Shown piece after piece: positions 4,968 to 30,263 of a DNA stretch of 64,000 nt. The translations under genes were made by a program, and so were the position numbers. The DNA is from Acidobacteriota bacterium. Its GTDB lineage: Bacteria; Acidobacteriota; Vicinamibacteria; Vicinamibacterales; UBA2999. The DNA is taken from the NCBI GenBank assembly GCA_016789705.1, contig JAEUQR010000141.1, positions 7,175 through 71,174 of the forward strand. Direction: 5' to 3'. How positions within the stretch are numbered: position 1 is the first letter of the stretch; each line of letters opens with the position of its first letter. Below the pieces are notes generated by a model that saw nothing but the letters and a program-made list of their open reading frames with translations, made no database searches and was not told the origin of the DNA.

Positions 4968-6443
4968 TCAGCCTTCGACCACGATCTTGAGACGCGTGCC
5001 CGCGGCGGGCTGCGTGTTCACGGCGTGGCCGTTCATCAGTGCCAGGCGCGTGGCCGGGACGAGGCCGCGACCGGCGCGCTGCGCGATGCCCTGCCAGGTA
5101 TCGCCGGGCTTCGCCGTGTAGAGCGCGACGCGATTCGGCCGGATGCGCGACGCCTCGGCGCCCGACAGTTCGCGGAACGATCGCACGGCCGCGGCGAACT
5201 CCGCGTCGACGCGCGCGAAGTCAGCCTCCGGCGCCACACCTGCCACCATGTAGACCTGGCGCCCGGCCCGGATGTGCGCGGCGCGGATGCGCACGGCCCC
5301 GACCTGGCGCGCCTTGCCACGGTAGAGGCCCACGAAGGCGTCTCGTCCGCTCACGGTGTCGAGGGCGCCGTGTTCGAACGTGAAGCCAAGACCGCGCATG
5401 TGTTTCCTGGCGCCGTCGTCGAGCGCCACGCCGTTCGCGTCGGAGGCCGCGCGCATCAGCATGAGCACCTGCTCGCCCTCGAGCTGCGCGACGACCTGCT
5501 CGCTCGAGTTCTGCACGTCCCAGCCCTCCGGGAAGTCCACTGCGATACGCAGATCCGGATGCAGGAAGCGATGCGCCTGCACGACACCTTCGGCAGGGTC
5601 GTCGCCATAGGCGAGCCCGTCGATACGGCGCAGGAACTCATCGCGATTCCGGTCACGCGCCCCCTCGCTCCGGCTGGCTGCGACTGGCGCGGCTTTCACC
5701 ACGCGCGAGCCGGGGTCCGGATGTGTGGAGAGCCAGTTGGGCACACCCCGCACGCTCATCGCGTCGAGGCGCGACAGCGTGGTCAGGAACCGCGGCACGC
5801 TCTCGGGATCCCAGCCCGCCCTGGACGCGTACTCCACCCCCAGCCGGTCGGACTCGAGCTCGTCGTCGCGCCCGTACTTCAGGAAGAGGGTGCCGAGCCC
5901 GGCGGATGCCAGGTCGCTGAACGGCGCGACGCCCGGCACGAAGATGCTCGCAAGCAGCACGCCGATCGAGCCGCCGGTGCTGCGTGTGAGCTGCTGCGAG
6001 GCATGGCGTGCGGTGACGTGCCCGATTTCGTGGCCGAGCACACCGGCCAGCTCCGATTCGTCGCCGAGGTGCGCCAGCAGGCCGCGCGTGACGTAGATGT
6101 AGCCGCCGGGCAGCGCGAAGGCGTTCACGGCCGGCACGTCCACGACCGTGAACGTCCACGGCAGCGTGGGGCGATGCGACACGGCGGCGAGGCGTTCGCC
6201 GACGCCGGTCACGTAGCGCTGCAGCTCTTCGTCGTGATACACGCCCATCTCGCGGCGGATCTCGGCGTCGCCGCGCTGACCGATGGCGATCTCTTCCGCT
6301 TCACTGAGGAACGACACCTCACGCCGGCCGGTGACCGGATTCGACGCGCATGCGGCGGAGGCGACAAGCGCCAGCGCCGCAAGGCCCGCGGCCAGATGAC
6401 GAGGAACGGACAGGACCCGACAGGTGGCGGTGCGCGGCATCAC
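4968..6443 (-). CDS. M48 family zinc metallopeptidase lipoprotein with C-terminal LysM domain
   Basis: Lipobox LVASAAC. HExxH site: GVLGHEIGHVTARH. The C-terminus YTAKPGDTWQGIAQR...NGHAVNTQPAAGTRLKIV is LysM-like. Confidence 0.85.
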   Translation of the reverse strand: MMPRTATCRVLSVPRHLAAGLAALALVASAACASNPVTGRREVSFLSEAEEIAIGQRGDAEIRREMGVYHDEELQRYVTGVGERLAAVSHRPTLPWTFTVVDVPAVNAFALPGGYIYVTRGLLAHLGDESELAGVLGHEIGHVTARHASQQLTRSTGGSIGVLLASIFVPGVAPFSDLASAGLGTLFLKYGRDDELESDRLGVEYASRAGWDPESVPRFLTTLSRLDAMSVRGVPNWLSTHPDPGSRVVKAAPVAASRSEGARDRNRDEFLRRIDGLAYGDDPAEGVVQAHRFLHPDLRIAVDFPEGWDVQNSSEQVVAQLEGEQVLMLMRAASDANGVALDDGARKHMRGLGFTFEHGALDTVSGRDAFVGLYRGKARQVGAVRIRAAHIRAGRQVYMVAGVAPEADFARVDAEFAAAVRSFRELSGAEASRIRPNRVALYTAKPGDTWQGIAQRAGRGLVPATRLALMNGHAVNTQPAAGTRLKIVVEG

Positions 6444-6587
6444 CTCAGCCTCCGCCGGGTCACGGCTGCAACTGCTGTACCACGCAGGACACGGGCAGGC
6501 GGTCAGCCGGAGCGCCGGAATCCATGGAAATCCGCACCGCCACGACAGCGGGCGCGCGACACGGTGTCGCCCGAAGGGGGCACCGGC

Positions 6588-7514
6588 TCAGGTCGTCGCC
6601 GGATCGGCGTCGAGCGGCGCCGGCTGCAGCAGCGGCACGCCCAGGTCGGTCAGCGTCCGGCGCAGCCCCTCGACAACGGCGCGCGGCGCCGGGCCGAGCG
6701 GCGCCCGCGGCAGCCCGCCGTCGAAGCCCATCAGATCCAGCGCGGCCTTGAGCGCCGGCACGCCGTGCAGGCCGCCAATCGTCCGCGCGAGGGGCGTCAG
6801 CCGACGCTGGATCGCGCGTGCTTCCAGGATGCGGCCGGCCCGCACGTGGTCGTGGATGTCGGCGCACAAATCCGGAACCACGCCGGCCAGCGCGATGACG
6901 GCACCTTCCGCACCGGCCACCAGCCCGGAAAAATAGGTCACGCCGCTGCCGGCCAGCACGAAGAACTCCGGCCCCGAGCGCGCGATGTAATCGGCCAGCA
7001 GGCTCGCTTCACTGCCCGATTCCTTCATGCCGACGATGTTCGGATGTTCGGCGAGCAGGCCGACGGCGTCGGGCGGCAGCGTGACGCCGGTGTACATCGT
7101 GACGTTGTAGAGCAGCACCGGCACGGGGCTCGCTTCGGCCACGGCGACGTAGTGACGCACGTAGACGTCGCTCGTCATCATGTTCTTGAAGAACGACGGC
7201 GTGCGCACGAGCACCGCATCCGCGCCGGCCCGCGCCGCGCGCACGCAGGCGGCAATCGTCGCCTTGGTGGATTCGGCCCCGGTACCGGCGATGAGCGGCC
7301 GTGAGGCCGGCATGGCCGAGCGGGCCGCCACGATGACTCGCTCTGCCTCCGAGTCGTCGAGCAGCACCGCCTCGCCATTCGAGCCGAGCACGACGAGCCC
7401 GGTCAGACGCGTCTGCATGTAGCGTTCGACATTGCGGCGAATCGCCGCGTCATCGACCGTGTCGTTGCGGAAGGGGGTGACGATCGGCGTGTACAGGCCG
7501 GACAGCGCGGGCAT
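6588..7514 (-). CDS. Dihydrodipicolinate synthase / N-acetylneuraminate lyase family (class I aldolase)
   Basis: LYTPIVTPF...GLVVLGSNGE...AGTG...; Schiff-base lysine context NIVGMKESG. The substrate cannot be assigned from sequence. Confidence 0.8.
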   Translation of the reverse strand: MPALSGLYTPIVTPFRNDTVDDAAIRRNVERYMQTRLTGLVVLGSNGEAVLLDDSEAERVIVAARSAMPASRPLIAGTGAESTKATIAACVRAARAGADAVLVRTPSFFKNMMTSDVYVRHYVAVAEASPVPVLLYNVTMYTGVTLPPDAVGLLAEHPNIVGMKESGSEASLLADYIARSGPEFFVLAGSGVTYFSGLVAGAEGAVIALAGVVPDLCADIHDHVRAGRILEARAIQRRLTPLARTIGGLHGVPALKAALDLMGFDGGLPRAPLGPAPRAVVEGLRRTLTDLGVPLLQPAPLDADPATT

Positions 7515-7523
7515 GGTCCGAGT

Positions 7524-8468
7524 TTATCCCGAGCGCGCGGCGTCGGGCGTGTGCCGCTCACGGGCCGGCTCGAGCAGCACGTTCGTGACGAGCACCACGA
7601 GGAACATGGCGAGCGCCGGCGCCAGCGTCCACGGGGCCCGCGTCATCGCCGAGATCGTGGCGGCATCACTGAGCGCCGTGCCCCAGCTCGGCACGCCGTC
7701 GGGGAAACCGAGCCCGACGTACGACAGCGTGGCTTCGGCGAGCACGAACATCGGCACGAGCAGGGCCGTCTGCACCGCGAGATAGCCGTGGCAGGCCGGC
7801 AGCAGGTGCCGCGTCATCACACGCCAGCGCGAGGCGCCGAGCGCGACGGCGGCCAGCACGTGTTCCTGCCGCGCCTCCGCGCGCACGATCGCCCAGACCC
7901 CGCGGGCGATCCGCGGCCAGCCGAGCAGCACGAAGATCGCGGCCAGCACGCCGACGATGACCGGCAGCGGCAGCACGAGTGGCAGCGCGGCCCGCAGGGC
8001 CACGACGACATAGAGCACCGGCAGCACCATCAGCACGTCGCCCGTCTTGAGCACGAGGCGCTCGACGAGACCACCGGCCAGGCCGGCCCAGCTCCCGAGC
8101 AGCGCCCCGAGGAGCAGCGTGCCGGCCGTGGCGACGAGCGCGAGCCCGAGTGAGGCACGCGCGCCGTGCAGCGTGCGCGAGAGGACGTCGCGCCCGAGAC
8201 GGTCGGCGCCGAGCAGCAACACGGGCGTGGCCGCAGGTGTCGTCCACGGCAGACCGGCCCGCTGCGACGGGTCTTCGGCGAACGTCTGCTCGAGGCGATC
8301 GAGGGGTCGCAGCGGCACGGTGTAGAGGCCACGACCATCGAGGTGCAGCGGCATGGGCGGCGCGTGCAGATGGTCGTCGAACCGCGTCACGGGGCCATAG
8401 GGCGCCACGAGCGGCCCGGCCACGGCCACCGCGACGAGCACGGCCACGAGCATGAGGGCGCGCCTCAT
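7524..8468 (-). CDS. ABC transporter permease, DppC/OppC-like
   Basis: Real start at MRRALMLVAVLVAVAV (ATG on the complement of 8466-8468). It overlaps the upstream stop in ATGA. Binding-protein-dependent permease pattern: ...SYVGLGFPDGVPSWGTAL. The longer 400-aa track ORF has an R-rich N-terminal extension that overlaps the upstream gene. Confidence 0.85.
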   Translation of the reverse strand: MRRALMLVAVLVAVAVAGPLVAPYGPVTRFDDHLHAPPMPLHLDGRGLYTVPLRPLDRLEQTFAEDPSQRAGLPWTTPAATPVLLLGADRLGRDVLSRTLHGARASLGLALVATAGTLLLGALLGSWAGLAGGLVERLVLKTGDVLMVLPVLYVVVALRAALPLVLPLPVIVGVLAAIFVLLGWPRIARGVWAIVRAEARQEHVLAAVALGASRWRVMTRHLLPACHGYLAVQTALLVPMFVLAEATLSYVGLGFPDGVPSWGTALSDAATISAMTRAPWTLAPALAMFLVVLVTNVLLEPARERHTPDAARSG

Positions 8469-9427
8469 TCGATGCGCCCCTCCAGCACGCGCGGGTCGAG
8501 CGCGGCATGCGCGATGTCGGCCAGTGTCGTGCCGGCGGCGAGCGACACGGCGCCGAGGGCGCCGCAGCCCGCCACGAGCCAGACATCGCGGGCACTGAGG
8601 GCGTCGAATAGCAGCCGTCCGAGTCCGGGCCACGCCGTCACGATCTCGACCACGAAGCTGCCGCTGAAAAGCGCGCCCACGAGCACGCCGTAGGTGCCGA
8701 GCACCGGCGCCAGCGACACCGGCCACGCATGCACCCGCGCGGCGGCGTCGGCGTCGAGGCCACGGGCGCGGCTCGCGGCCACGAACGAGCGCCCGAGCGT
8801 GTCGGCCATGGCGCGTGCCTGCAGACGTTCAAGCGTGGCGGCGAGCGGCAGCGCGAGCGCCAGCGTGGGCACCGGCAGGTGCCGCAGCAGATCGACGAAC
8901 CACGCGGCCCCCGTGAGGCCGCCTGACGTGATGCCGCCTGCCGGCAGCCAGCCGGTGCGGGCGGCGATGAACACGAGCAGGAGCGCGCTCAAGAGCGGCG
9001 GCACCGACAGCACGGCCAGCGACAGCGCGCGCACGACGCGCGACAAGCTGCCCTGGGTCGAACCGGCCAGCCGCCCGAGCGGCAGCCCGATGCCGGTCGC
9101 CACGACGAGCGCCGCCAGCGCGAGCAGCGCCGTGTTCGCGGCGCGCTCGCCCACGAGGTCGGTCACCGGGCGGCGGTACAGCGAGGACCGGCCCATGTCC
9201 AGGCGCAGCAGTCCACCGAGCCAGTGCGCGTACTGGGTCAGGAAGGGCCGGTCGAGTCCGAGCTCGGCGCGCAGCGCCGCGACCTCCTCCGGCGAACGCT
9301 GCAGGCGATCTTCGAGGGCGGGATCGCCCGGCACCAGGCGCGCCAGCAGCAGCGTGAGCGACGCGACGACCAGGGCGAAGATCGCCCCGCTCACGACGCG
9401 ACGCACGGCAAAACGCGCGAGCGACAT
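8465..9427 (-). CDS. ABC transporter permease, DppB/OppB-like
   Basis: MSLARFAVRRVVSGAIFALVVASLTLLLARLVPGDP...; typical DppB N-terminus and six hydrophobic segments. Confidence 0.85.
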   Translation of the reverse strand: MSLARFAVRRVVSGAIFALVVASLTLLLARLVPGDPALEDRLQRSPEEVAALRAELGLDRPFLTQYAHWLGGLLRLDMGRSSLYRRPVTDLVGERAANTALLALAALVVATGIGLPLGRLAGSTQGSLSRVVRALSLAVLSVPPLLSALLLVFIAARTGWLPAGGITSGGLTGAAWFVDLLRHLPVPTLALALPLAATLERLQARAMADTLGRSFVAASRARGLDADAAARVHAWPVSLAPVLGTYGVLVGALFSGSFVVEIVTAWPGLGRLLFDALSARDVWLVAGCGALGAVSLAAGTTLADIAHAALDPRVLEGRIE

Positions 9428-18735: not shown

Positions 18736-21222
18736 TCAGTTCCCGCCGCCACCCAGGGGCGGGCCGGGGCTCAGCGGATACCGCGATCGCGGCCGCGTCC
18801 CCCAGCCCGGCGCGATGAACTTCGGTGCGTTCGCGGCGGGATTCTGCAGATACCGCGTGATGTCCGTTTCCGCCTGCCGCAGGTGCGCCTCGGCCATCGG
18901 GTCGGCGTCCTTCCGCGCGGCCAGGCTCTGCCCGAGCGCGCGAATCTGCTGCAGCACGTAGGCCCGCACCTCAGGCGTCGTGTCGGCGTGTCCGCCCAGG
19001 ATCATCAGTGCATCGAGCGCGGCCCGTTCGGTCACACGGCGAATGGAGACGTGCCGTGGCGACTCGCTGCCGTGCGGTCCCCAGGTGGCCTTGAGCACCT
19101 CGGCCACGACGTCCGGCAAGGTGAGGGCGTTGGTCTGCCGATCCGCGAACGCCACGAGGCGGGCGGCGCGGTCTGGCTGCAACAGGTCGCCCAGCACCAT
19201 GGCCGCAAGAATGCGCGCGGCGCGAAGGTGGTCGAAGGCGTAGTCGCTGGACATGTCTTCGAGGTTGCTGCCCGGGTGCGGCGTCAGCTGCGCCAGCAGC
19301 GGCTCGGGCAACTCGAGCGCGGCGGGCGCGATCGCCGACAGCAACAGGCCGAGCACCTCGCGCTGCGTGGCCGCGGGCACGATCTCGGTCGGGGCGCCGG
19401 CGTCGCCTTTGACGTTGAAGGAGTGGAACATCCCGCCCACGTACCGCAGGCCGGATTCGATCGCCCAGCGGTGGTGCAGATAGGTCATCCACAGCCGCGC
19501 ATCGCGCAGCGCGCCCACCGGCTCACCCGGCCGCAGGATGTTCTGGCCGTAGTTGTTGAGCATGATGGCGCGAGCGGCCATCGTCTCCTTCAAGTACTCC
19601 GACGGCGTCGCGCGGTCGTCGTACCACGACCACCGCGGGTCGGTCTCGGGCACGAAAAGGAGGCTCCTGGCGCGCAGCTCGCGGATGACGCCGTCAAGGC
19701 CGGCCTTCTCCTGGTCGGCGGGAAACACGGAGTAGGCGTACTTCGCCATCATCTCGTCGTAGGGGCCGATGGCACGCTGGAACGCGTCGCTCAGGTCGAG
19801 GCGACCGTTCGTGACCTTGACGCGCGGCGTCGGGTACTCCATGACCGAGGCGAAGTTGTTGAGGCTCGCCGAGAAATTGTGCTGGAAGCCCATGACGTGG
19901 CCAAGTTCATGCGCCGTGAGCAGCGTCTGGCGCAGCAGCACCAGGTCGCGCTCGGCCGCGGGCATGCCGTCGGTGGGCTGGCCTTCGGCCAGCGCCTCGA
20001 CCAGCGCCGGATCGCCGGCAAAGAGCGCCGCGTCGTCGTCCGCGCCGCCGGTGGTGGGGGTGTAGGCTTCGAAGTAGTTGCCGATGGTGCGGATGCGATG
20101 CGAGTCCATCCGCGTCTTCGAGCCGAGGATCTCGCCGGTGCGCGGGTCACGGAACGTGCCGCCGCTCGAGAAGCCGCGCTCGTCGCGATTGATCCAGAGG
20201 ATCCACGCGTAGCGGATATCCATCGGATCCATGTCCGGCGTCGGGTCTTTCACCTGCACGGCGTTGCGGAAGCCGGCGGCCTCGTAGGCCCTGTTCCACC
20301 ATAACGCGCCGTTGCGCATCGCCGTGCGTGTGGGCTCTGGAATGCCGGGGTCGAGGTAGAACACGATCGGCGTCTTCGGCTCGCTCATCGCCGCCGCCGG
20401 GTCTTTCTTCTCGAGGCGCCAGCGCGTGATCCACTGCACCTCGGTGTCCTGGTCGAACGGCTTCGTGAAGTCGCGGAACGTGATGGTGCTCACGCCGATC
20501 CTGGGGTCGGCCATGCGGGGTGTGTAGCCCTCCGGCGCCTTCAGGAACGAGTGATGGATGCGCAGCGTGAAGAACCGGCCGTCGGGGGTGACGTTGTTCA
20601 CGAGCAACCCGGGATTGTCGGCCACGAAGGTCACCACGGTTTCGACCTCGGCGTTCAGCGGGAAGCTTCTGATGCGCGCCGGATAGAAGGCGCTCCGCGT
20701 CGCGTCGAAGCGGAAGGTGCCCTGATTGACGCGCCGGAAGCGGCCTTCGACATCGGCAGCGTCGCGCAGGAAGAGCGGCGAGGCGTCGACGAGCACGCGT
20801 CCGTTCTCGTCGGCCTCGACGGGCAGTGCCGCGAGCACGGAACTGGCGAACGAGTCGCGCACGTTCTCGATCTGCGCGGCCGAGCCCCCCACCGCGCGGT
20901 ACCGCTGGTTCTGCGCGATGACCAGCACACGCGGTCCCGACCGCTGGAAGTGGATAACTTCGGTGCCGAGGATGCCACGGTCGAACGGCAGTTCCACGGA
21001 GCCCGCGCCCGACGCCGCCGACACGTAGTACAGCACGTCGCTGTCGAACACCGGCACTTCGGCCAGCACACGCCCGCGCGCCGCATCCCAGTAGAGCGGC
21101 ACGAAGCCGTCGAGTCTGGTGAGGCCTTTCGTGCGTTCCGCCAGCGTCGTGGCGGGTTGGGCGGCCGCCGACGCGGCGAGCGCCGCCGCCAGCACCCACG
21201 CCATCGCGATCGTGCGCGTCAT
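18736..21222 (-). CDS. Secreted zinc-dependent metalloprotease (met-zincin-like, DUF4953/DUF5117-type)
   Basis: Start chosen at MTRTIAMAWVLAAALAASAAAQ (signal peptide; ATG on the complement of 21220-21222). Zinc site: LLTAHELGHVMGFQHNF. Confidence 0.8.
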   Translation of the reverse strand: MTRTIAMAWVLAAALAASAAAQPATTLAERTKGLTRLDGFVPLYWDAARGRVLAEVPVFDSDVLYYVSAASGAGSVELPFDRGILGTEVIHFQRSGPRVLVIAQNQRYRAVGGSAAQIENVRDSFASSVLAALPVEADENGRVLVDASPLFLRDAADVEGRFRRVNQGTFRFDATRSAFYPARIRSFPLNAEVETVVTFVADNPGLLVNNVTPDGRFFTLRIHHSFLKAPEGYTPRMADPRIGVSTITFRDFTKPFDQDTEVQWITRWRLEKKDPAAAMSEPKTPIVFYLDPGIPEPTRTAMRNGALWWNRAYEAAGFRNAVQVKDPTPDMDPMDIRYAWILWINRDERGFSSGGTFRDPRTGEILGSKTRMDSHRIRTIGNYFEAYTPTTGGADDDAALFAGDPALVEALAEGQPTDGMPAAERDLVLLRQTLLTAHELGHVMGFQHNFSASLNNFASVMEYPTPRVKVTNGRLDLSDAFQRAIGPYDEMMAKYAYSVFPADQEKAGLDGVIRELRARSLLFVPETDPRWSWYDDRATPSEYLKETMAARAIMLNNYGQNILRPGEPVGALRDARLWMTYLHHRWAIESGLRYVGGMFHSFNVKGDAGAPTEIVPAATQREVLGLLLSAIAPAALELPEPLLAQLTPHPGSNLEDMSSDYAFDHLRAARILAAMVLGDLLQPDRAARLVAFADRQTNALTLPDVVAEVLKATWGPHGSESPRHVSIRRVTERAALDALMILGGHADTTPEVRAYVLQQIRALGQSLAARKDADPMAEAHLRQAETDITRYLQNPAANAPKFIAPGWGTRPRSRYPLSPGPPLGGGGN

Positions 21223-21301
21223 CGTCTGCTCCTTCACCGAGGGGGACGTCGATTCCCCGCGTGGATTGTCGGCAGGGCGTTCGGTCAAGTCAAGGCATGC
21301 G

Positions 21302-24061
21302 TCAGCCGACGTCCACGGAAGCCGGCGCCGCATGCGCCTTCAGCTTCTCGCGCGCGGCCTCCGCCGTGGTGCGCAGCAGCGGGTCGGCGTCGCCAGCCCA
21401 GCGGTCCACGACTTCCGCGAAGTGCGCCAGACGCAGCTCGCCGATGGCGTAGGCGGCGCACGACTGCAGCCAGCGGTCGCGGCTGAGCGCGAGCACCTCC
21501 ACCGCCTCCTCGCGCGAGCCCACGGCCACGCCCACCAGGCGCTCGGCGATTCCCGCCCGTTCTTCGATCGACACTTCGCGGTCGAAGAGCGGCACGACGA
21601 GTGCGCGGACCGGCGGCGGCAGCACGTTCTCGAGGAACTCGAGCGCGTTGTCGTGCACGCTGCGGTCCGCCGACTGCACACCCACGAACGCGCTGTGCAG
21701 GTCGTGGTCGGGGTAGAGCACCTTCATCAGCCGGAAGATCCGCTCGCTCTCCTGCAGGAGCGAGTCGCGCACCGCCTGCAGCACCGGCTCGGCGCCGGCG
21801 AGCGACCCGCCCATCGTGCCGAGCACCTGATACGAGCGGTAGTGGCCCGTGATCTCCGCGGCGAGCGCCGTCTCGACGATGCCGCGATCGACCTCCCGCC
21901 CCGGATGCAGTTGCAGGAGCTTGTTGAGCGCCGTCACGGCCCGCAGGCGCACCACCGTGTCGGCATCGAGCAGACTTTCCACGAGCACCGTCTGCGCCGC
22001 CGGCGTGCCGATCGCCTGGAGCGCGCCGGGCAGCTCGCGCCGGATCGCATCGGGCGTGTCGCGGTCCATCAGGTAGTCGCGCAGCGTGCCGACGATGCGG
22101 TCGCCGAGCTGCCCGAGCGCCGTCACCACGTCGCCGGTGAGCCACGGCTCGGCGATGCGGTCGACGAGGCGGTGCACGAGTGCCCGCTTCCCCAGGCGGC
22201 CGGCCGACCGCACGGCCTCGCGCGCCACCTCCGGTGCGTCGTCCTCGAGCAGCTTGCGGAGCTCGCGCTCGAAGACGTCGGGCGACAGACCGATGACTCG
22301 CGCCGCCTGGATGCGTCCGCGCAGTCCGTCATCGCCGCCGTCGGCGACCATCCGCTGCAGGATGAGCTGCGCCGCCTCGACGTTCTGCGCGCGGCCCGGA
22401 CGCGCGAGGAACGCCACCATCGCCGCCTGGATCGAGAATCCCTCGAAGTCGCCGACGCGCTCGATCACGGTGAGCGGATCGACCGCCGTCGTGTGCGTGA
22501 GGTACAGCAGCGCCTCCGTGCGCACCTCGAGCTGCGGGTCGCGCAGCAAGGCCTCCACCTGCGGCACGACCGACCGCACGTTGGCCTGCGCGAGCATCGC
22601 CACGGCGCGCACGCGCACCTCGGCCGATTCGTGGCTCAGCAGACCAGGGATCGCCGGGTGCACGCGGTCCGCCCTCGCCACCTCGAAGAGACTGAGCGCA
22701 TAGATGATGTCGGCGGGGTGACCTTCGAGCTTGCGCGCCAGCGCGTCGGCTGCGTTGCGATCGAGAAGGGCGCCGTTCGCGCGTTCGGCATCCATCCGGT
22801 GCTGCAGGATGCTCTCGTGCAGATTCGTCACATACTGCCGCCGGGCCGTCGCCGCAGCCAGAAGCCACGCGGCCACCACGGCGAGCGTGACCCAGCCCAC
22901 CTGCACCGGCGACCAGCCGAAGCCGGCGGCGAAGGCGAGCACGGCCAGGCCGCCCAGCCCGTCGCCGAAGCGATAGACCACCGTGTCGATGAAGGCCTTC
23001 ACTCGGAAGGTTTCGGCCGCCGAGAGCGGCAGATACAGCAGCTCCACCGTGGACTTGTCGATCGAATAGCGCAGGACCTGATCGCTCGCCTTGAGCGCCG
23101 ACACCGCGGCGAGCGAACCGAGCACGAGCACCGCGACGGACGTCGAGGCCATGGCGAGCGGCACGATAAAGAGCGCCACGCCGACGCCCGCCGTGCGCAG
23201 CACACGGCCGGTCAGCACGAGCTGCATGACGAGCGAGGCGCCGCCAGCCAGCATGTTGAAGAGGCCGAAAAACGCCGTCAGCTGGTCAGTGTCTGGAATC
23301 CCGGCCTTGGCGATCGCCTTGAATTGCCAGCCGGCGATGGTCGTCGCAAACGACGCCAGCCCGATGACACAGGCAATCGCGCGCAGATACGGTGAACCGG
23401 CGATATGCCGCAGGCTCTCGCGCAGGCCCGGTGGCGCCGCCGTCTGGTCCACGGGCGCGATGCTGCCACGGCGCCACAGGAGCTGCACGAGCCCTACCGA
23501 GGCCACGAGGCTCGCCGCCACCCAGAGCAGCAGCGTCTCGGTACCGAGCGACCTGGCCGTGACGCTCGTGGCCAGGCCGCCCACGATCCAGCCGAGAATG
23601 GCGCCGCTGCCGATGAATCCGAAGGCCCGTTTGGCCTCGCGGGTTGTGAGCACGACACTCGCGAGCGTCCACACCTGTGTCGGCGCCAGCGCGCCGAACA
23701 CGCCCACCCAGAGATAGATGGCGATGAAGAGCACCCCGTCATCGGCCAGCGCGACGCTGAGCCACCAGAACGCCAGGCTGGTGACGGCGAAGAACAGTAG
23801 CGTGCCGGTCTGCAGGGCCCGCATCGACAGCCAGCGCAGGCCCCGCAGATACACCGCCACGGCGACCCCGACGAGAACCGCGATGGCGATATCGACGTAG
23901 GGAAGTTCAGCGGCCGGATAGCGGTCTAGGAAGAGCGCGTCCCGGGTGGCCTTCGAGGCCACCGTCGCGGCCGTGGTGAGGAAGAGGTAGGTGAACAGCG
24001 GCCAGGCGCGTCCCCACTCGCCCTCGTTCAGGCCAAGAACCCGCCGCACCCCTGTCAGCAT
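21302..24061 (-). CDS. TLC (ATP/ADP translocase-like, COG3202-type) membrane transporter fused to C-terminal HEAT repeats
   Basis: The N-terminus EWGRAWPLFTYLFLTTAATVASKATRDALFLDRYPAAELPYV aligns by eye with the Npt/Tlc N-terminal motif (..P.F..F......R..KD.L......A..P). About 12 TM segments follow. After them come about 480 aa of HEAT-like repeats (HESAEVRVRAVAML..., DPQLEVRTEALLYL..., DDAPEVAREAVRSAGRLG, DADTVVRLRAVTAL). Confidence 0.65.
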   Translation of the reverse strand: MLTGVRRVLGLNEGEWGRAWPLFTYLFLTTAATVASKATRDALFLDRYPAAELPYVDIAIAVLVGVAVAVYLRGLRWLSMRALQTGTLLFFAVTSLAFWWLSVALADDGVLFIAIYLWVGVFGALAPTQVWTLASVVLTTREAKRAFGFIGSGAILGWIVGGLATSVTARSLGTETLLLWVAASLVASVGLVQLLWRRGSIAPVDQTAAPPGLRESLRHIAGSPYLRAIACVIGLASFATTIAGWQFKAIAKAGIPDTDQLTAFFGLFNMLAGGASLVMQLVLTGRVLRTAGVGVALFIVPLAMASTSVAVLVLGSLAAVSALKASDQVLRYSIDKSTVELLYLPLSAAETFRVKAFIDTVVYRFGDGLGGLAVLAFAAGFGWSPVQVGWVTLAVVAAWLLAAATARRQYVTNLHESILQHRMDAERANGALLDRNAADALARKLEGHPADIIYALSLFEVARADRVHPAIPGLLSHESAEVRVRAVAMLAQANVRSVVPQVEALLRDPQLEVRTEALLYLTHTTAVDPLTVIERVGDFEGFSIQAAMVAFLARPGRAQNVEAAQLILQRMVADGGDDGLRGRIQAARVIGLSPDVFERELRKLLEDDAPEVAREAVRSAGRLGKRALVHRLVDRIAEPWLTGDVVTALGQLGDRIVGTLRDYLMDRDTPDAIRRELPGALQAIGTPAAQTVLVESLLDADTVVRLRAVTALNKLLQLHPGREVDRGIVETALAAEITGHYRSYQVLGTMGGSLAGAEPVLQAVRDSLLQESERIFRLMKVLYPDHDLHSAFVGVQSADRSVHDNALEFLENVLPPPVRALVVPLFDREVSIEERAGIAERLVGVAVGSREEAVEVLALSRDRWLQSCAAYAIGELRLAHFAEVVDRWAGDADPLLRTTAEAAREKLKAHAAPASVDVG

Positions 24062-24124
24062 TCAACTACGTATCGTATTGCCGGGCGGCGCCGGCACTGC
24101 ATAAGATTCACCCCACCGTCCCCC

Positions 24125-27100
24125 ATGCCGTCATCCGACACACGACCGTCACGCCTCGCCCGCTGGCTCGCCCCCATCGCCGAACTCCGCGATGGCGAAG
24201 GCGCCACGGCGTTCCTGCTCTTCCTGTACTCGTTCCTGGCGATGACGTCGTACAACATCGTCAAGCCGGTCACACGCTCGCAGTTCATCTCGAGTCTGGG
24301 CGCCGACAACCTGCCGTGGGTGCAGTTCGGCGCCGGCATGCTCATCGGCCTGCTGATGCAGGGCTACACGAAGGCGATCGCGGCCGTGCCGCGCCGCTGG
24401 ACGATCCCGGTCACACAAGCCGGCATGATCGCGCTGCTCGTCACGTTCTGGGTGCTCTTCACCCGGGTGGGCAGCGAGTGGGTCTCGGTGGGCTTCTACC
24501 TGTTCGGGCTCATCCTCGGCATCCTGCTCATCAGCCAGTTCTGGACGCTCGCCAACGACATCTACGACCCGCGGCAGGCCAAGCGTCTGTTCGGCCTCAT
24601 CGGCGGCGGCTCGAGCCTCGGCGGCGCCACCGGCGCCGCGCTCACCGCCGGCCTCGTCGAATCACTCGGCACGAAGACGATGCTGCTCGTCAGCGCCGGC
24701 ATCATGTTCGTGTGCCTGCTCATCGTCGTGCGCATCATCCGCTCCAACGAGAAAGCCGGCCAGTCCGATGCCGCGAAGACCGGCGAAGAGGAAGGCGTCG
24801 GCGGCGGTGAGGCGCTGGCACTGCTGCGCGGCTCGCGCCACCTGCAGATCATCGCCCTCGTCATCACGTTCGCGGCCATCGGCGCCGCGATCATCGAGCA
24901 GCAGCTCAACATGGCCACGGCGGAGGCCAAGGGCCAGTCGAACACCGACGGCATCACCGCCTTCCTCGCGCAGGTCACCGTCTACCTGTCGCTCATCGGC
25001 CTCTTCATCCAGGTGGCGCTCACGAGCCGCATCCACCGGCTGCTCGGCATCGGCTTCGCGCTGCTCATCCTGCCCGTCAGCCTCGGCGCCTCGGGCCTGC
25101 TGATGCTCTCGGTGGGCGCGCTCTGGACGTCGGGCCTGGCGCGCGTGCTCGACACGTCGCTGCGCTACACGGTCGACAAGACCACACGCGAGATTCTGTT
25201 CCTGCCGCTGCCGGCCGACGTGAAATACCGCGCCAAGCCCTTCATCGACGTCACCGTCGATCGGCTGTCGAAGGGCGCCGGCGCACTGCTGATCCTCGTC
25301 CTCATCAAGGACTGGGGGCTGGCGCTCAGCTGGCGGCAGTTGAGTTACGCGAGCCTGGCCATCATGGCGCTCTGGGTCTTCTTCGCGTTGCGGGCGCGCA
25401 AGGAGTACATGGCGGCGTTCCGCCGGAGCATCGTGCAGCAGGACATGAAGGCCGGCGAGATCCGCCTCGAAACGGCCGACCTCTCCACCATCGAAGCGCT
25501 GGTCGAGGAACTGGGACACCACGAACCGAAGCGTGTCGTCTACGCGCTCGACCTCATCGAGTCGCTCGACAAGCGGCACCTGGTCAGCCCGCTGATGCTG
25601 CACCACGAGCATCCGGACGTCCGCACCCGCGTGCTGCAGCTCGCCGAAGCCACCGGCCCGTCGGGCGCCACGCGCTGGCAACGCGGCATCGAACGCGGGC
25701 TGGCCGATGCCGAAGGCGACGTCCGCGCCGCGGCCGTGCGGGCGCTGGCCGCCGTGAAGGGCCAGGGCGCCGCCGCCCTCATGCGGCCCTACCTGCGGGA
25801 TGGCGATCCGGCCCTCGTCGTCACCGCCGCATCGGCGCTGTCGAACAGCACCGACACGGCCGACGTGACCGCCGCGATGGACGCCTTCCGCGCGCTCATC
25901 GACGACTCGCGTGAACAACGCGCATCGACGCGCGCCGAAGTGGCGCGCGCGCTCGGCCGCGTGACGAATCCGGAGTTCCGTCCGCTGCTTGTGCCGCTCA
26001 TGTTCGACGCCGACACCGAGGTGGCGCGCGCCGCCATCCGCAGCGCCGCCAGGCTCGGCGCCGGCGACTTCCTGTTCGTGCCGCCCCTCGTCTCGCTGCT
26101 GCGCAACCGGCTGCTCAAAGGCGCGGCGCGCGACGTGCTGGCCGGCTACGGCGAGGCCGTCGTGCCCACGCTCGTGTACTTCATGAAGGACCGCGAGGAA
26201 GACGTGTGGGTGCGCCGGCACATGCCGGCCACACTCGCCCGCATCCCCTGCGCCGCCACGCTCCAGGCCCTGCTCGAGACGGTGGACGACCCGGACGGCT
26301 TCCTGCGCTACAAGGCGCTCGCCGCCCTGGAACACCTGCGCCGCACGCGGCCCGACCTGGTCATCCCGACGGTCACCGTGGAGAAACTCATCGCCGGCGA
26401 GACGACGCGGGCATTCAACCGTCTCACGCTGCACTACAACCTGTTCCACGCCGGCGGCCTCGACGGCACGAGCCTGCTGGCACGCGCGCTCACCGAAAAA
26501 TACGCGCGCGCGTTCGACCGCGTGTTCACGCTGCTGAGCCTCATCCATCCGCCCACCGACATCGCCGCCGTGCGGCACGCGCTCGTGACGGGCGACGCGC
26601 GGAGCCGTTCAGGCGCCGCCGAATACCTCGACAACATCCTCACCGGCGAGGCGCGGGCGCGCGTCATGCTGCTCGCCGAGGAGATGCCGCTCGACGTGCG
26701 CATCCGCAAGGGCAACACGCTCTTCCGCACGCGCCAGCGCGACGTCGAGGACACGCTCGCGCAGCTCATCCACGACGAAAGCCAGGAAGTGGCGGCCACC
26801 GCGATCCAGCTGGTGGAGGCGCAGCAGCGCTGGACGCTCGCCCCCGACCTCGAGCACACACTCGAGCACCGGCCGGTGCGCGACTGGTGGGTCTTCGAGG
26901 CAGCCTCGTGGGCGCTGGCGGCGCACCGCATGCCCGCGGAGCGGCGGCGCGTGCTCTGGCAGGAGCCGTTGCCGGCCGTCGAGCTCGCCGACCGCCTGCG
27001 CCGCATCCGCCTGTTCGACTTCGTGTCGGTGGACGAACTCTTCCGCGTGGCGAGCCTGGGCCGTCAGGTGCGGCACGAAGCCGGCCGCGTCATCGCGCAG

Positions 27101-27874
27101 GAAGGCCAGGCCACCGATGCGCTGCACTTCGTGCTCGACGGCCGGGTGTCGGTGGGCGGCAGCCACTGCGGCCCCGACGAGCTGGGGGCCCCCGGCGTCA
27201 TCGGCTTCGAGGACGTGCTCGAAGGGCACCCCGTGCGCCACACGGCCACGGCCCTCGAGCCGACGATCACGCTGACGATGACGACCGACGCGTTCCTCAC
27301 GCTCGTGTCCGAGAACGTGGAGATCGCACAGGGCATCTTCCGCCTGCTGCTCGAGACGCGCTGCGCGCCGGCCTGGCGCACGGTCGTGCACGGCACGCTG
27401 TCGGACGAACTGACGAAACGGGTCGCCGACGGGGTGCAGACACTCGACGGCCTGCTGCTCCTGCAGTCGAGCCCGCTGTTGCAGCGGGCGACGACGGCCG
27501 ACCTGGTGCGGCTGGCGGGCATCGCCCGCATCCTGCCGCTCGCGGCCGGCGACACGCTGTTCAAGGCCGGCGACGGGGCGGCCATCCATGCCGTCGTGAC
27601 CGGCGCCATCGCGATTGCCGGCGACGGGGGCGACACCGACACCGCCGAAAGTGGCGACGTGGTGGGAATGTATGAAGCCCTCGGGGGCCGCTACATGACC
27701 TCCGCCGGCAAGGTCACGGTGGCCGGCGAGGTGCTGCGCATCGACCGCGCAGAGCTCTTCGAGCTGATGGCCGACAACATCCCGCTGCTGCAGGGCATCT
27801 TCAGCGGCCTGCTCCACGCCTCCACGCACGCGACGGCCGGCGATCACACGCACGCGGCCGGGGCCGCCCACTGA
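24125..27874 (+). CDS. TLC-like transporter + HEAT repeats + two cyclic-nucleotide-binding (cNMP) domains
   Basis: Paralog of 21302..24061 (EGATAFLLFLYSFLAMTSYNIVKPVTRSQFISSLGADNLPWV). HEAT repeats: HEHPDVRTRVLQLA, EGDVRAAAVRALA, DADTEVARAAIRSAARLG. Two cNMP-binding-like domains: LFDFVSVDELFRVASLGRQVRHEAGRVIAQEGQATDALHFVLDGRV and SPLLQRATTADLVRLAGIARILPLAAGDTLFKAGDGAAIHAVVTGAI. Confidence 0.65.
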   Translation: MPSSDTRPSRLARWLAPIAELRDGEGATAFLLFLYSFLAMTSYNIVKPVTRSQFISSLGADNLPWVQFGAGMLIGLLMQGYTKAIAAVPRRWTIPVTQAGMIALLVTFWVLFTRVGSEWVSVGFYLFGLILGILLISQFWTLANDIYDPRQAKRLFGLIGGGSSLGGATGAALTAGLVESLGTKTMLLVSAGIMFVCLLIVVRIIRSNEKAGQSDAAKTGEEEGVGGGEALALLRGSRHLQIIALVITFAAIGAAIIEQQLNMATAEAKGQSNTDGITAFLAQVTVYLSLIGLFIQVALTSRIHRLLGIGFALLILPVSLGASGLLMLSVGALWTSGLARVLDTSLRYTVDKTTREILFLPLPADVKYRAKPFIDVTVDRLSKGAGALLILVLIKDWGLALSWRQLSYASLAIMALWVFFALRARKEYMAAFRRSIVQQDMKAGEIRLETADLSTIEALVEELGHHEPKRVVYALDLIESLDKRHLVSPLMLHHEHPDVRTRVLQLAEATGPSGATRWQRGIERGLADAEGDVRAAAVRALAAVKGQGAAALMRPYLRDGDPALVVTAASALSNSTDTADVTAAMDAFRALIDDSREQRASTRAEVARALGRVTNPEFRPLLVPLMFDADTEVARAAIRSAARLGAGDFLFVPPLVSLLRNRLLKGAARDVLAGYGEAVVPTLVYFMKDREEDVWVRRHMPATLARIPCAATLQALLETVDDPDGFLRYKALAALEHLRRTRPDLVIPTVTVEKLIAGETTRAFNRLTLHYNLFHAGGLDGTSLLARALTEKYARAFDRVFTLLSLIHPPTDIAAVRHALVTGDARSRSGAAEYLDNILTGEARARVMLLAEEMPLDVRIRKGNTLFRTRQRDVEDTLAQLIHDESQEVAATAIQLVEAQQRWTLAPDLEHTLEHRPVRDWWVFEAASWALAAHRMPAERRRVLWQEPLPAVELADRLRRIRLFDFVSVDELFRVASLGRQVRHEAGRVIAQEGQATDALHFVLDGRVSVGGSHCGPDELGAPGVIGFEDVLEGHPVRHTATALEPTITLTMTTDAFLTLVSENVEIAQGIFRLLLETRCAPAWRTVVHGTLSDELTKRVADGVQTLDGLLLLQSSPLLQRATTADLVRLAGIARILPLAAGDTLFKAGDGAAIHAVVTGAIAIAGDGGDTDTAESGDVVGMYEALGGRYMTSAGKVTVAGEVLRIDRAELFELMADNIPLLQGIFSGLLHASTHATAGDHTHAAGAAH

Positions 27875-27893: not shown

Positions 27894-29414
27894 CTAACGC
27901 GGCAGGCGCACGTCGAAGGTCGTGCCGGTGCCTGGCGTGCTCGTCACGCTCACGCGGCCGCCGTGCCGTTCCACGATCGCTTTCACGATCGAGAGGCCGA
28001 GGCCCGTGCCGGGGCCGTCGGCCCGCGCGGGATCGGCCTTGTAGAAGCGGTCGAAGACGTGCGGCAGGTGTTCCGGACCGATGCCTTCGCCGGTATCGCT
28101 CACGCGAAGCACGGCGTCACCACCCTCGACGAACGCCTGCCAGCTGACACGGCCACCGGCCGGCGTGTGGCGGAGGGCATTCGCCGTGAGGTTCTGCACG
28201 ACCTGCTCGAGCCGGCGGGCATCACCGGGCACGGTGTCGAGGCCGCCGGCGATCGAGGTCTCGAGTGTGACGGCCGCGGCCGCCGCCGTCGGCCCATGCC
28301 GCTCGACCACGCGCGTGAAGAGGGCCGCCACGGCTACCGGCACGCGCTCGAACGCGGCGCCGCCGGCATCGACACGCGCCAGGTCGAGCAGGTCGTTCAC
28401 CAGCCGCTCGAGGCGCTGCGCCTCGACATCGACGATGTGCACAAAGCGGCGGCCTTCATCACTGGACGGCGCGAAGGCCGGCAGGGTCAACGTCTCGGCG
28501 TAGCCGCGAATGGCCGTGAGCGGCGTGCGCAGTTCGTGGGTGACATCGGCGAGCAGTTGCCGGCGGGCGCGGTCGGCCTCGACGAGCGCGGCCTCGCGCG
28601 CCGCCGCCTCGTCGGCCATACGGTTGAAGGCGCGGGCCACGGCCGCCACCTCGTCGCCGCCGCGCTCGACGGCGCGGGCCGTGAGATCACCGGCGCCGAA
28701 ACGCCGCGCCGCCTGTTCGAGGTCGCTGAGCCTGGCCTGCGCCGGGCGGAACACGGCAAGAGAGGCCAGCGCCGTCCCGGCCGCGAGCAGCACGGCCAGG
28801 CCCACAGCGAGCCACGGGGCGAGTTCGCGCGCCACCGCGGCGGGTGGCCGTCCGCGCGCCACCATCACCGCCGCGACGACGTGGTCGTTCACGCGCACCG
28901 GGGCCACCGCCCAGGGCGGCCCGAGCGGCCGCGGCCCGGGTCGGCTCTGCCCGCGCGCCCCGCGTGTCTCACTGTCGCGCTCCTGCGGCCGCAGATCCCG
29001 CCGGCGGGTGTTCGGCCGCCGGCCGGGCGGCCACGCCGCGTCCCCGGCGGCGAGCTGAGCCCGCACGTCCTCCACGAGCGGCGGCGGCGGCTCGAGGTCG
29101 CCGGCCACCACGCGGCCATCCGCCAGCACGAGTGCGGCCGGGCGCCCCAGATCGCGGAAGCGTTCGTCGGCCAGCAGCGCCAGATCCATGCCGCTCCCGC
29201 GTTCGGCGGCGTCGCCGAGTTCCTCGGCCACGAGCGCGGCCAGGTCACCGAGCAGGCGCGGCGGCAGCGCCGCTTCCCGCTGCGTCGAGAGCCACAGAAA
29301 AAGGCCGCCCTGCGCCACGAGCGTCGCCGCGAGGAACGCGATGAAGCCGATGGCGATGCGCCAGTAGAGGCTGCGGTACCAGCGGCGCGGGCCGGGCAGG
29401 GTCGGCTCAGACAT
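27894..29414 (-). CDS. Sensor histidine kinase (two TM segments, HAMP, HisKA, HATPase_c)
   Basis: H-box DVTHELRTPLTAIRGY; N-box QNLTANALRHTP; G-boxes VSDTGEGI and GTGLGLSIVKAIVERHGG. Start taken at MSEPTLPG; it overlaps the response regulator stop by 8 nt. Confidence 0.9.
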   Translation of the reverse strand: MSEPTLPGPRRWYRSLYWRIAIGFIAFLAATLVAQGGLFLWLSTQREAALPPRLLGDLAALVAEELGDAAERGSGMDLALLADERFRDLGRPAALVLADGRVVAGDLEPPPPLVEDVRAQLAAGDAAWPPGRRPNTRRRDLRPQERDSETRGARGQSRPGPRPLGPPWAVAPVRVNDHVVAAVMVARGRPPAAVARELAPWLAVGLAVLLAAGTALASLAVFRPAQARLSDLEQAARRFGAGDLTARAVERGGDEVAAVARAFNRMADEAAAREAALVEADRARRQLLADVTHELRTPLTAIRGYAETLTLPAFAPSSDEGRRFVHIVDVEAQRLERLVNDLLDLARVDAGGAAFERVPVAVAALFTRVVERHGPTAAAAAVTLETSIAGGLDTVPGDARRLEQVVQNLTANALRHTPAGGRVSWQAFVEGGDAVLRVSDTGEGIGPEHLPHVFDRFYKADPARADGPGTGLGLSIVKAIVERHGGRVSVTSTPGTGTTFDVRLPR

Positions 29415-30108
29415 CGGCGAACTTGTAGCCCGCACCCCACACCGTGAGGATGAGGACGGGCGCCTCCGTGTCGGCTTCGACGCGCTTGCGCAGCCGCTTC
29501 ACGAGCGTGTCGACACTGCGCGGCGTGACGAAGGTCTGATCGGGCCACACCTTCGCCAGCAGCGCCTCGCGGCTGAAGACGATGCCGGGATGCGTCGCCA
29601 GCAGGTGCAGCAGCTTGAACTCCTGCGTGGTGAGTTCCACATCCTGCCCGCGCACGCGCACACGCCGGCGCGCCGGATCGATCTCGACGCCGTGCAGGGT
29701 CACGACCTTCCCCGCGTCGCCGCCCGGGACGACGATGGCGCGCGGGCGGCGCAGCAGCGCCCGCACGCGGGCGACGAACTCGCGGATGCCAAAAGGCTTC
29801 GCCAGGTAGTCGTCGGCGCCGGTCTCGAGGCCGAGCACCTTGTCCGACTCCTCGCCGCGCGCCGTCAGCATCAGCACCGGCGTCCCGGTGTTGACGCCGC
29901 TGCGCCGCATGGCCTTGCACACGGTCAGTCCGTCCACGCCGGGCAGCATCAGATCCAGCACCACCAGGTCGACGCGCGTCGACTCGAGACGGGCGAGCGC
30001 CTCGCGGCCGTCGCCGACGAGCGTGCACTCGAGCCCCTCGAGGCCGAGGTGCAGCGCGATGAGGTCGCGGATGTGGGCGTCGTCTTCGACGACGAGGACA
30101 TGGGCCAT
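29407..30108 (-). CDS. OmpR-family response regulator
   Basis: Starts at MAHVLVVEDDAHIRD. Receiver domain: DLVVLDLMLPGVDG...LMLTA. Winged-helix output domain: VELTTQEFKLLHLLA...ILTVWGAGYKF. Confidence 0.9.
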   Translation of the reverse strand: MAHVLVVEDDAHIRDLIALHLGLEGLECTLVGDGREALARLESTRVDLVVLDLMLPGVDGLTVCKAMRRSGVNTGTPVLMLTARGEESDKVLGLETGADDYLAKPFGIREFVARVRALLRRPRAIVVPGGDAGKVVTLHGVEIDPARRRVRVRGQDVELTTQEFKLLHLLATHPGIVFSREALLAKVWPDQTFVTPRSVDTLVKRLRKRVEADTEAPVLILTVWGAGYKFADV

Positions 30109-30263
30109 GCGAGCGGCGCCCAACGGCGCCGTGCGGTCGATCTTACGGGCACCGGCCGGAGTTTCCCCCGCCAAGTGACGCCTGCCATACTTTTGTCACG
30201 CGCGCGCCGCCGCCGCGCCACGCGCGTCCCGTCTAGTAGGACAGGAAGGCTGGAGGGCATCCG

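Follow-up and report, generated by a model that had tools for sequence, protein, structure and literature searches.

Carriers of the NTT type pass for a hallmark of energy parasitism. Yet free-living bacteria have a very large branch of these proteins in which the carrier is fused to HEAT repeats (2,441 clusters at 50% identity, E <= 1e-30). Nine years after its description, this branch has no assigned function. What might such carriers do in a free-living cell? The question is raised by a pair of paralogous genes in an acidobacterium, found in a stretch of 64,000 nucleotides that we refer to as the window (positions 7,175 to 71,174 of contig JAEUQR010000141.1, assembly GCA_016789705.1). The two genes are transcribed away from each other. 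The product of the shorter one combines an NTT-type membrane domain with a HEAT tail, and the product of the longer one ends, in addition, in two domains having the cyclic-nucleotide-binding (CNB) fold. Our preferred answer, the chances of which we judge to be about even, is that the two genes encode a regulated pair of NTT-type carriers for an anionic, probably nucleotide-like substrate, with the HEAT arms serving autoregulation or docking and the CNB domains of the long paralog acting as a sensor that does not read cyclic nucleotides.

The gene pair

The pair consists of the following genes (coordinates are those of the window unless a locus is named).

21302-24061, minus strand: short paralog gene, NTT-HEAT, 919 aa (open reading frame and translation; Pfam TLC and HEAT_2; AlphaFold2 (AF2) model; ratio of nonsynonymous to synonymous substitution rates, dN/dS)
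24125-27874, plus strand: long paralog gene, NTT-HEAT-2xCNB, 1249 aa (open reading frame and translation; Pfam; dN/dS)

The original prediction, made from the letters of the window without database searches, had described divergent 919- and 1249-aa paralogs around a 63-bp spacer, and this description holds to the exact coordinate. Neither reading frame contains an internal stop, so that both genes are intact. Their products are 29% identical over 858 aa (BLASTP, E 4e-64), and because the N-termini of orthologs are conserved across the order, both the start codons and the length of the spacer are well supported. In the 5.03-Mb, 99% complete assembly, the short and the long paralogs are the only matches to the Pfam family TLC (PF03219), scoring 49.6 and 52.6 bits, respectively, against a gathering cut-off of 21. 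HEAT repeats, fused C-terminally to the NTT domain (PF13646/PF02985), are detected in both proteins as well (HEAT_2, E 7e-19 and 4e-23). The long paralog also matches MFS_1, a family of the major facilitator superfamily (MFS), and, in two stretches, the cyclic nucleotide monophosphate (cNMP)-binding family cNMP_binding (PF00027; 64.7 bits, cut-off 27.5). In both genes, every domain is subject to purifying selection; compared with four close orthologs, whole-gene dN/dS is 0.08-0.18 for the short paralog and 0.07-0.15 for the long one.

As a side observation, the long paralog is broken into three to six adjacent reading frames in two assemblies of the same genus (G006:C10:123244-126968 and G016:C12:137100-139345). 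Since completeness is low in both assemblies (69-81%), despite their small number of contigs, the breaks are as likely to be due to indel errors as to pseudogenes.

The membrane domain

The membrane domains of the two proteins are delimited as follows.

22775-24061, minus strand: short paralog 12-helix NTT-type MFS domain, residues ~1-429 (AF2 helices 13-429, Foldseek)
24125-25447, plus strand: long paralog NTT-type membrane domain, residues ~1-441 (phmmer, family-invariant residues)

According to the AF2 model of the short protein (pLDDT 81.7, pTM 0.66), its 12 membrane helices lie at residues 13-429. The five top Foldseek matches of this model in the PDB are all structures of AtNTT1 and of Chlamydia pneumoniae NTT1 (E 4e-10 to 1e-7), with TM-scores of 0.61-0.75, normalised to the target, over ~475-495 aligned columns (0.67-0.75 for 9j3m, 9j3l and 9j3n), and the remaining MFS transporters rank after them at E ~1e-5. 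A phmmer search with residues 1-452 of the long protein returned, as PDB sequence matches, solely AtNTT1 (9j3j, E 6.6e-9) and the C. pneumoniae translocator (9j3n, E 2.5e-8). In the alignment with these PDB sequences, the long paralog has the motifs FW..AN, EAK[KR]F and [KR]E..PL..K.K..IDV in common with canonical NTTs, and the charged residues of such motifs, both basic and acidic, are visible; the common pattern Y..[LV][KR]..[KR][DS] in the first transmembrane (TM) helix is weak but recognisable. We also defined 35 invariant or near-invariant membrane positions from 40 diverse members of the family, and the long paralog keeps 27 of them, the changes at the other eight being conservative. Both paralogs, then, have kept the membrane residues that are invariant in the family, among them the basic and acidic ones of the motifs common to canonical NTTs.

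Taken together, the PDB sequence matches, the AF2 helices, the Foldseek ranking and the invariant membrane residues identify the two proteins as relatives of NTTs and not as generic MFS members. This bears out the original prediction, which had recognised by eye a 12-TM region of the NTT/TLC type in both proteins and had allowed for its placement in an unrelated MFS family; PF03219 is matched above the cut-off, and profile and structure comparisons alike have NTTs on top. Nonetheless, neither paralog is a canonical NTT, because both score far below the cut-off of TIGR00769, the NCBIfam model of canonical NTP/NDP exchangers (49 and 56.7 bits against 387.2, with partial coverage of the model). 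By these sequence features, both proteins look like working carriers.

Two further proteins of the same genome, 457 and 478 aa long and unfused, have ~30% identity to the long paralog's membrane domain (contig C175; L024:2395-3768 and L024:4731-6167, both on the minus strand). One of them matches MFS_1, and the other falls just below the TLC cut-off and has a weak TIGR00769 match. Possibly, these two proteins are related to the fusion family but lack its tail.

The cytoplasmic tails

C-terminal to the membrane domains, the following features were assigned.

21329-22717, minus strand: short paralog cytoplasmic HEAT solenoid, residues ~449-911 (Pfam HEAT_2, AF2 secondary structure and pLDDT)
25478-26959, plus strand: long paralog HEAT solenoid, residues ~452-945 (Pfam HEAT_2 in four stretches, AF2)
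26960-27379, plus strand: CNB-fold domain 1, residues ~946-1085 (cassette region 27203-27244, G1027-T1040; hhalign to MloK1)
27380-27829, plus strand: CNB-fold domain 2, residues ~1086-1235 (cassette region 27665-27706, G1181-A1194; second Pfam stretch, AF2 beta-barrel)

The HEAT stretch, foreseen in both paralogs by the original prediction, is modelled in each as a solenoid of ~470-490 aa. In the short protein, it is separated from the membrane helices by a linker (residues 430-444) that AF2 models with low confidence. For residues 440-1249 of the long protein, AF2 (pLDDT 86.1, pTM 0.78) gives the solenoid followed by two beta-barrel CNB folds, and the Foldseek matches of this model include the tandem CNB-A/B domains of the regulatory subunits of PKA and PKG (E ~1e-9). 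At rank 1 stands the cAMP-independent PKA-R of Trypanosoma brucei, and SOS1 and SLC9C1 are also among the matches. The long paralog is thus modelled as ending in a PKA-R-like tandem CNB fold, and the two C-terminal domains read from the sequence earlier are recovered by Pfam, AF2 and Foldseek alike.

Do these domains read cAMP or cGMP? To address this issue, we aligned 120 orthologs (>= 59% identity) and compared their profile by hhalign with the cyclic-nucleotide-binding domain (cNBD) of MloK1, which served as the cassette reference; a sequence of Escherichia coli CRP aligned poorly and was set aside. Domain 1 matches the MloK1 cNBD with 96% probability, and the spacing of the G...P anchors of the cassette is kept. 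However, the position of the canonical Glu, which in receptors contacts the ribose 2'-OH, is occupied in domain 1 by F1028 (F in 96 of the 120 orthologs), and that of the canonical Arg, which contacts the cyclic phosphate, by V1037 (M in 65, V in 24, A in 18 and I in 10 orthologs). In domain 2, the corresponding residues are M1182 (M, I, L or V in orthologs) and M1191 (F, M, L or I). The domains are not decaying, since their dN/dS is low (0.02-0.13 for domain 1 and 0.08-0.13 for domain 2).

The original prediction had suggested a ligand-gated transporter or transceptor with cNMP sensors. In such a scheme, cAMP or cGMP made by class III cyclases of the cell would bind both C-terminal domains and thereby open or close the carrier. 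Several observations fit this scheme: PF00027 is matched above its cut-off, the tandem fold resembles those of PKA-R and PKG, the genome encodes three class III cyclases (one of them ~26 kb away on the same contig), an arginine, R1038, follows immediately after the canonical Arg site, and the P-R of the cassette is kept in single-cNBD relatives from other lineages. Yet with both the Glu and the Arg positions hydrophobic in both domains, while the G...P spacing is preserved, gating by cAMP or cGMP is unlikely. Moreover, R1038 is Arg in just 51 of the 120 orthologs. Other cNBDs of the same genome do have the canonical FGE...PR[ST]AT cassette and act as internal controls; two of them read FGELSLLDGGPRSATV (PRSAT) and FGEMSMLTGDPRTATV (PRTAT). 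The domains of the long paralog are also the two lowest-scoring of the seven PF00027 matches in the genome. The earlier analysis had itself named loss of the conserved cassette as the result that would speak against gating, and this loss is what the alignment reveals; we consider cAMP or cGMP gating to be very improbable. Signalling by cyclic nucleotides does exist in this genome, but the CNB domains of the long paralog, as far as their cassettes tell, are not built to read it.

As to the cyclases themselves, the one on the same contig is a class III adenylate/guanylate cyclase gene (G000:C153:5248-5766, minus strand) lying ~2 kb before the start of the window. A further one (C144:15592-16122) has a canonical-cNBD protein encoded ~2.4 kb away (C144:18488-18727).

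Pairing and origin of the paralogs

The arrangement of the two genes is far from being a peculiarity of one genome. Among 41 relatives, the long gene adjoins a divergent short gene wherever the contig permits the check. For a broader survey, the best 80 loci, all from Acidobacteriota, were fetched with an alignment of 10 short-protein sequences. All loci at >= 52% identity with enough upstream DNA (~57, Vicinamibacterales/Vicinamibacteria) carry the long paralog head-to-head with the short one, and divergent pairing is therefore conserved throughout Vicinamibacteria. In the loci labelled Terriglobia (~22, 47-51% identity), no long paralog was found within 6 kb of the short ortholog.

To place the paralogs, we used a tree made up of 119 representatives of the fusion family alone. 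Both nest in well-supported subclades of this tree. The short paralog belongs to a clade of 19-20 short forms (support 97-99), and the long one branches off on a long stem within a clade having two cNBDs, itself part of a mostly cNBD-bearing group (support 99). Over the whole tree, the cNBD state has changed at least 6-9 times. We had considered that the pair arose by a recent tandem duplication, and rejected this because the paralogs fall into different deep subclades; by this tree, they derive from anciently separated ones. The family to which they belong is large, a full scan with the short protein yielding 11,839 clusters (50% identity) at E <= 1e-3 besides the more restricted set given at the outset, and the lengths of its proteins cluster at ~920, ~1,030-1,060 and ~1,080-1,250 aa.

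The shared control region

The DNA between the two start codons contains the following elements.

24062-24124, no strand assigned: divergent control spacer, 63 bp (sequence; alignment of 12 same-genus spacers)
24071-24081, minus strand: box TATCGTATTGC, with the -10-like hexamer TACGAT (24077-24072) 10 nt before the ATG of the short gene; invariant in 12/12
24100-24109, plus strand: box CATAAGATTC, with the -10-like hexamer TAAGAT (24102-24107) 17 nt before the ATG of the long gene; invariant in 12/12

In the 12 species of the same genus that were aligned, the spacer is 55-64 bp long. Both boxes are invariant in every genome, the GC-rich 17-18 bp between them vary, and the distance from TAAGAT to the ATG of the long gene ranges from 10 to 17 nt. 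A possible -35 element for the long gene is TTGCCG (24078-24083), 18 nt upstream of TAAGAT. In other families of the order, the spacers measure 36-254 bp and often have a TAAGAT- or TAGGAT-like box near the ATG of the long gene. From conservation alone, we infer that the two boxes are back-to-back, outward-facing -10 elements. The spacer had been held to leave almost no room for two independent promoters; this view is not supported, as two genus-invariant outward -10-like boxes fit into it. Being so close to both start codons, these boxes imply leaderless or near-leaderless mRNAs. A palindrome lying between them, TGCCGG-N6-CCGGCA (24084-24099), was considered as an operator and rejected, since it is present here but not conserved in the genus.

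Conserved head-to-head synteny together with a shared compact control region suggests that the two genes are co-expressed and that their products act jointly. Alternatively, they might be two independent transporters with different substrates, inherited synteny being the only reason for their adjacency. Independence would agree with the normally monomeric state of MFS and NTT carriers, with the placement of the paralogs in different deep subclades, with their mere 29% identity and with the occurrence of the short one alone in Terriglobia. It is harder to reconcile with the head-to-head arrangement in each of the ~57 Vicinamibacteria loci examined, down to 52% identity, while the flanks change. 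Nor does any of the 41 relatives have the long gene minus an adjoining short gene where this can be checked, and the compact control region shared by the two genes is invariant within the genus. We regard independence as being on the unlikely side, though still as a serious competitor of the regulated carrier pair.

Neighbouring genes

Three genes flank the pair in the window.

27894-29435, minus strand: HAMP histidine kinase (Pfam), immediately following the long gene at its 3' end
29407-30174, minus strand: OmpR-type regulator (Pfam)
18736-21225, minus strand: secreted DUF5117/DUF4953 Met-zincin, downstream of the short gene and on the same strand (Pfam; likely start at ATG 21225)

A two-component system immediately downstream had been pointed out earlier. 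It is indeed adjacent; however, it lies on the opposite strand, i.e. convergent to the long gene, and so is not part of its operon, and it is kept in only part of the order, the regulator-kinase operon standing beside the pair in many but not all Vicinamibacterales loci, down to ~58% identity. This neighbourhood raises the possibility of a transceptor or scaffold, in which a non-transporting MFS domain would anchor the HEAT platform or sense an external ligand, and the platform would recruit partners such as this two-component system. HEAT solenoids are classic protein-docking scaffolds, the membrane domain has strongly diverged from that of canonical NTTs, and the recurrence of the regulator-kinase operon would give the platform a partner. 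On the other hand, a domain relieved of transport would hardly be expected to keep, in both paralogs, the motifs common to NTTs and the polar and charged membrane residues that are invariant in the family, and to remain under purifying selection, and the kinase-regulator operon, besides being convergent, is missing from many loci that bear the pair. We give this reading little credence.

The Met-zincin and a sigma-54 activator adjoin the pair within the genus only. The longest open reading frame of the zincin overlaps the short gene by 32 bp (within the region 21225-21333), which would imply translational coupling. We rejected this overlap because ATG 21225, located 76 nt after the stop of the short gene, is followed by a clear signal peptide (MTRTIAMAWVLAAALAASAAAQP); this ATG is most likely the true start.

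A different neighbour emerges in Terriglobia. In ~20 of the 22 loci, a gene for an exported PPP-type metallophosphoesterase (PF00149) immediately precedes the ortholog of the short paralog on the same strand. The enzyme has the motifs GDVHGD, GDLLDRGP and GNHE, a signal-like N-terminus and a weak, sub-threshold similarity to ApaH/PrpE. Two examples from the Terriglobia loci among L076-L104 are as follows.

L095:4576-5886, then 6001-8772: phosphoesterase, then NTT-HEAT
L091:4365-5957, then 5989-8760: phosphoesterase, then NTT-HEAT

The same phosphoesterase gene is found beyond the long paralog in two deep-branching loci that bear the pair (L074:319-1023 and L075:1-1008). Such linkage points to a putative role in periplasmic nucleotide or phosphoester metabolism, although it is a hint only. 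A more specific version of our preferred model can be built on it: the pair would export ATP or exchange nucleotides with the periplasm, feeding or recycling nucleotide for exported enzymes instead of taking it up, the HEAT and CNB tail matching the flux to the state of the cytoplasm. Besides the phosphoesterase linkage in Terriglobia and at L074 and L075, the consideration that ATP import makes little sense for a free-living cell speaks in favour of this version. In the present genome, however, the phosphoesterase homolog is unlinked to the pair (contig C91), and a search around it for a linked cluster of exported enzymes gave nothing informative. There is no exported kinase near the pair in the window, and the linkage could equally reflect phosphate scavenging. 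Export to or exchange with the periplasm is clearly unlikely in our estimate.

At one of the Terriglobia loci, a large serine recombinase with Resolvase and Recombinase domains (L095:2453-4216) lies just upstream of the phosphoesterase/NTT-HEAT operon, which hints that a mobile element borders it.

A proposed regulated carrier pair

How might such a pair work? In the model that we favour, each paralog would be a 12-helix MFS carrier, joined after its last TM helix by a flexible linker to the HEAT solenoid in the cytoplasm. Alternating access would bring a substrate that is anionic, and probably nucleotide-like, across the inner membrane. With the cytosolic helical-plus-CNBD modules of SOS1 and SLC9C1 as an analogy, the HEAT tail might regulate its own carrier or dock partners, and the CNB module of the long paralog might sense a cue other than cAMP or cGMP, for example, a nucleoside-like or hydrophobic ligand or a protein partner. 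Both genes would be co-expressed from the back-to-back promoters as leaderless or near-leaderless mRNAs, and their products would cooperate, perhaps in a heteromer to which the long paralog contributes the sensor.

Several points weigh against this model. A strict consensus scan of the spacer for sigma-70 promoters and terminators returned zero sites. The short paralog occurs without the long one in Terriglobia, and what suggests joint action or a heteromer is solely the conserved adjacency of the genes. The substrate of canonical NTTs is not transferable to these proteins, because the TIGR00769 scores reach only 49-57 bits. Finally, the paper that described the fusion family states that its function is unknown (PMC5381601), and our literature search found no functional study of NTT-HEAT fusions later than 2017.

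It is tempting to take the model one step further and to envisage a heteromeric, sensor-controlled carrier through which ATP or a similar nucleotide passes between cytoplasm and periplasm, for instance so that substrates of exported phosphoesterases and kinases are supplied or recycled, and which is gated by a PKA-R-like tandem CNB module, rewired for a ligand that is not a cyclic nucleotide. As a whole, this is a long shot. If true, however, several thousand clusters would thereby gain their first function as a family, and the idea of a periplasm free of nucleotide energy would be called into question. Even though the locus adds no new kind of system, it sharpens three points. To judge from their cassettes, neither cAMP nor cGMP should be bound by the "cNMP" domains of the long form in Vicinamibacteria. 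Short and long paralogs from different old subclades stand head-to-head across a whole class, which argues for their working together. Linkage of the short gene to that of an exported phosphoesterase, finally, is seen in the sister class.

Comparison with known systems

The closest structural relatives of the membrane domain are the canonical NTTs of Arabidopsis and Chlamydia pneumoniae, AtNTT1 and NTT1 (9j3j, 9j3l, 9j3m, 9j3n, 9j3o; TC 2.A.12), which provide the best match in both fold and sequence. Loop and helix motifs are common to both sides, and identity is 18-23% over ~475-495 columns. Canonical NTTs lack HEAT and CNB tails, whereas both paralogs here are HEAT-tailed. The setting differs too, since the present host is a free-living soil bacterium that has no host cytosol as a source of nucleotides.

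For the tail of the long paralog, the PKA-R of Trypanosoma (6h4g, 6flo) offers the nearest parallel. It has a tandem CNB-A/B arrangement like that of the long paralog, and is unresponsive to cAMP because its cassette lacks the canonical Arg. In trypanosomatid PKA, the CNB fold with its altered cassette binds purine nucleosides and not cAMP (Ober et al. 2024, PMC10959531). There are differences, however: trypanosome PKA-R regulates a kinase, whereas the CNB module of the long paralog sits on the tail of a transporter and is hydrophobic at both the Glu and the Arg positions. The precedent is therefore an analogy and not evidence for what the long paralog might bind. Plant SOS1 and sperm SLC9C1 (7y3e, 8iwo, 8pd9) come closer in general layout, as both are secondary transporters continued by a big helical region in the cytosol and by a CNBD-type domain through which activity is controlled. 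Their transporter fold is that of a Na+/H+ antiporter, unrelated to MFS/NTT, so that this likeness, too, is one of analogy and not of homology over the whole protein.

The family itself has been described before. Major, Embley & Williams (2017, Genome Biol Evol 9:480; PMC5381601) showed that NTT-HEAT and NTT-HEAT-cNBD fusions form a monophyletic family, widely distributed in free-living bacteria, Acidobacteria included, with repeated fusion and fission of the cNBD. The fusion in a free-living bacterium, to which the original prediction drew attention, was thus already in print. The long form here has the same domain order, with NTT/TLC, HEAT and C-terminal cNBD(s), and close orthologs are named 'Npt1/Npt2 family nucleotide transporter' by NCBI. 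The architecture is not new, and the locus is a real, ordinary member of this known family. Some details nevertheless go beyond the published description. That paper reports the duplicated cNBD from Bacilli and oomycetes only, and here it is found in Vicinamibacteria. Its text is also without the divergent short/long pairing, the missing cassette residues and the phosphoesterase linkage, all of which are seen here. New with this locus are the class-wide divergent pairing, the separate old subclades of the two paralogs, the hydrophobic Glu and Arg positions of the cassettes, the -10-like boxes of the spacer, the convergent orientation of the two-component system and the linkage to a phosphoesterase in Terriglobia.

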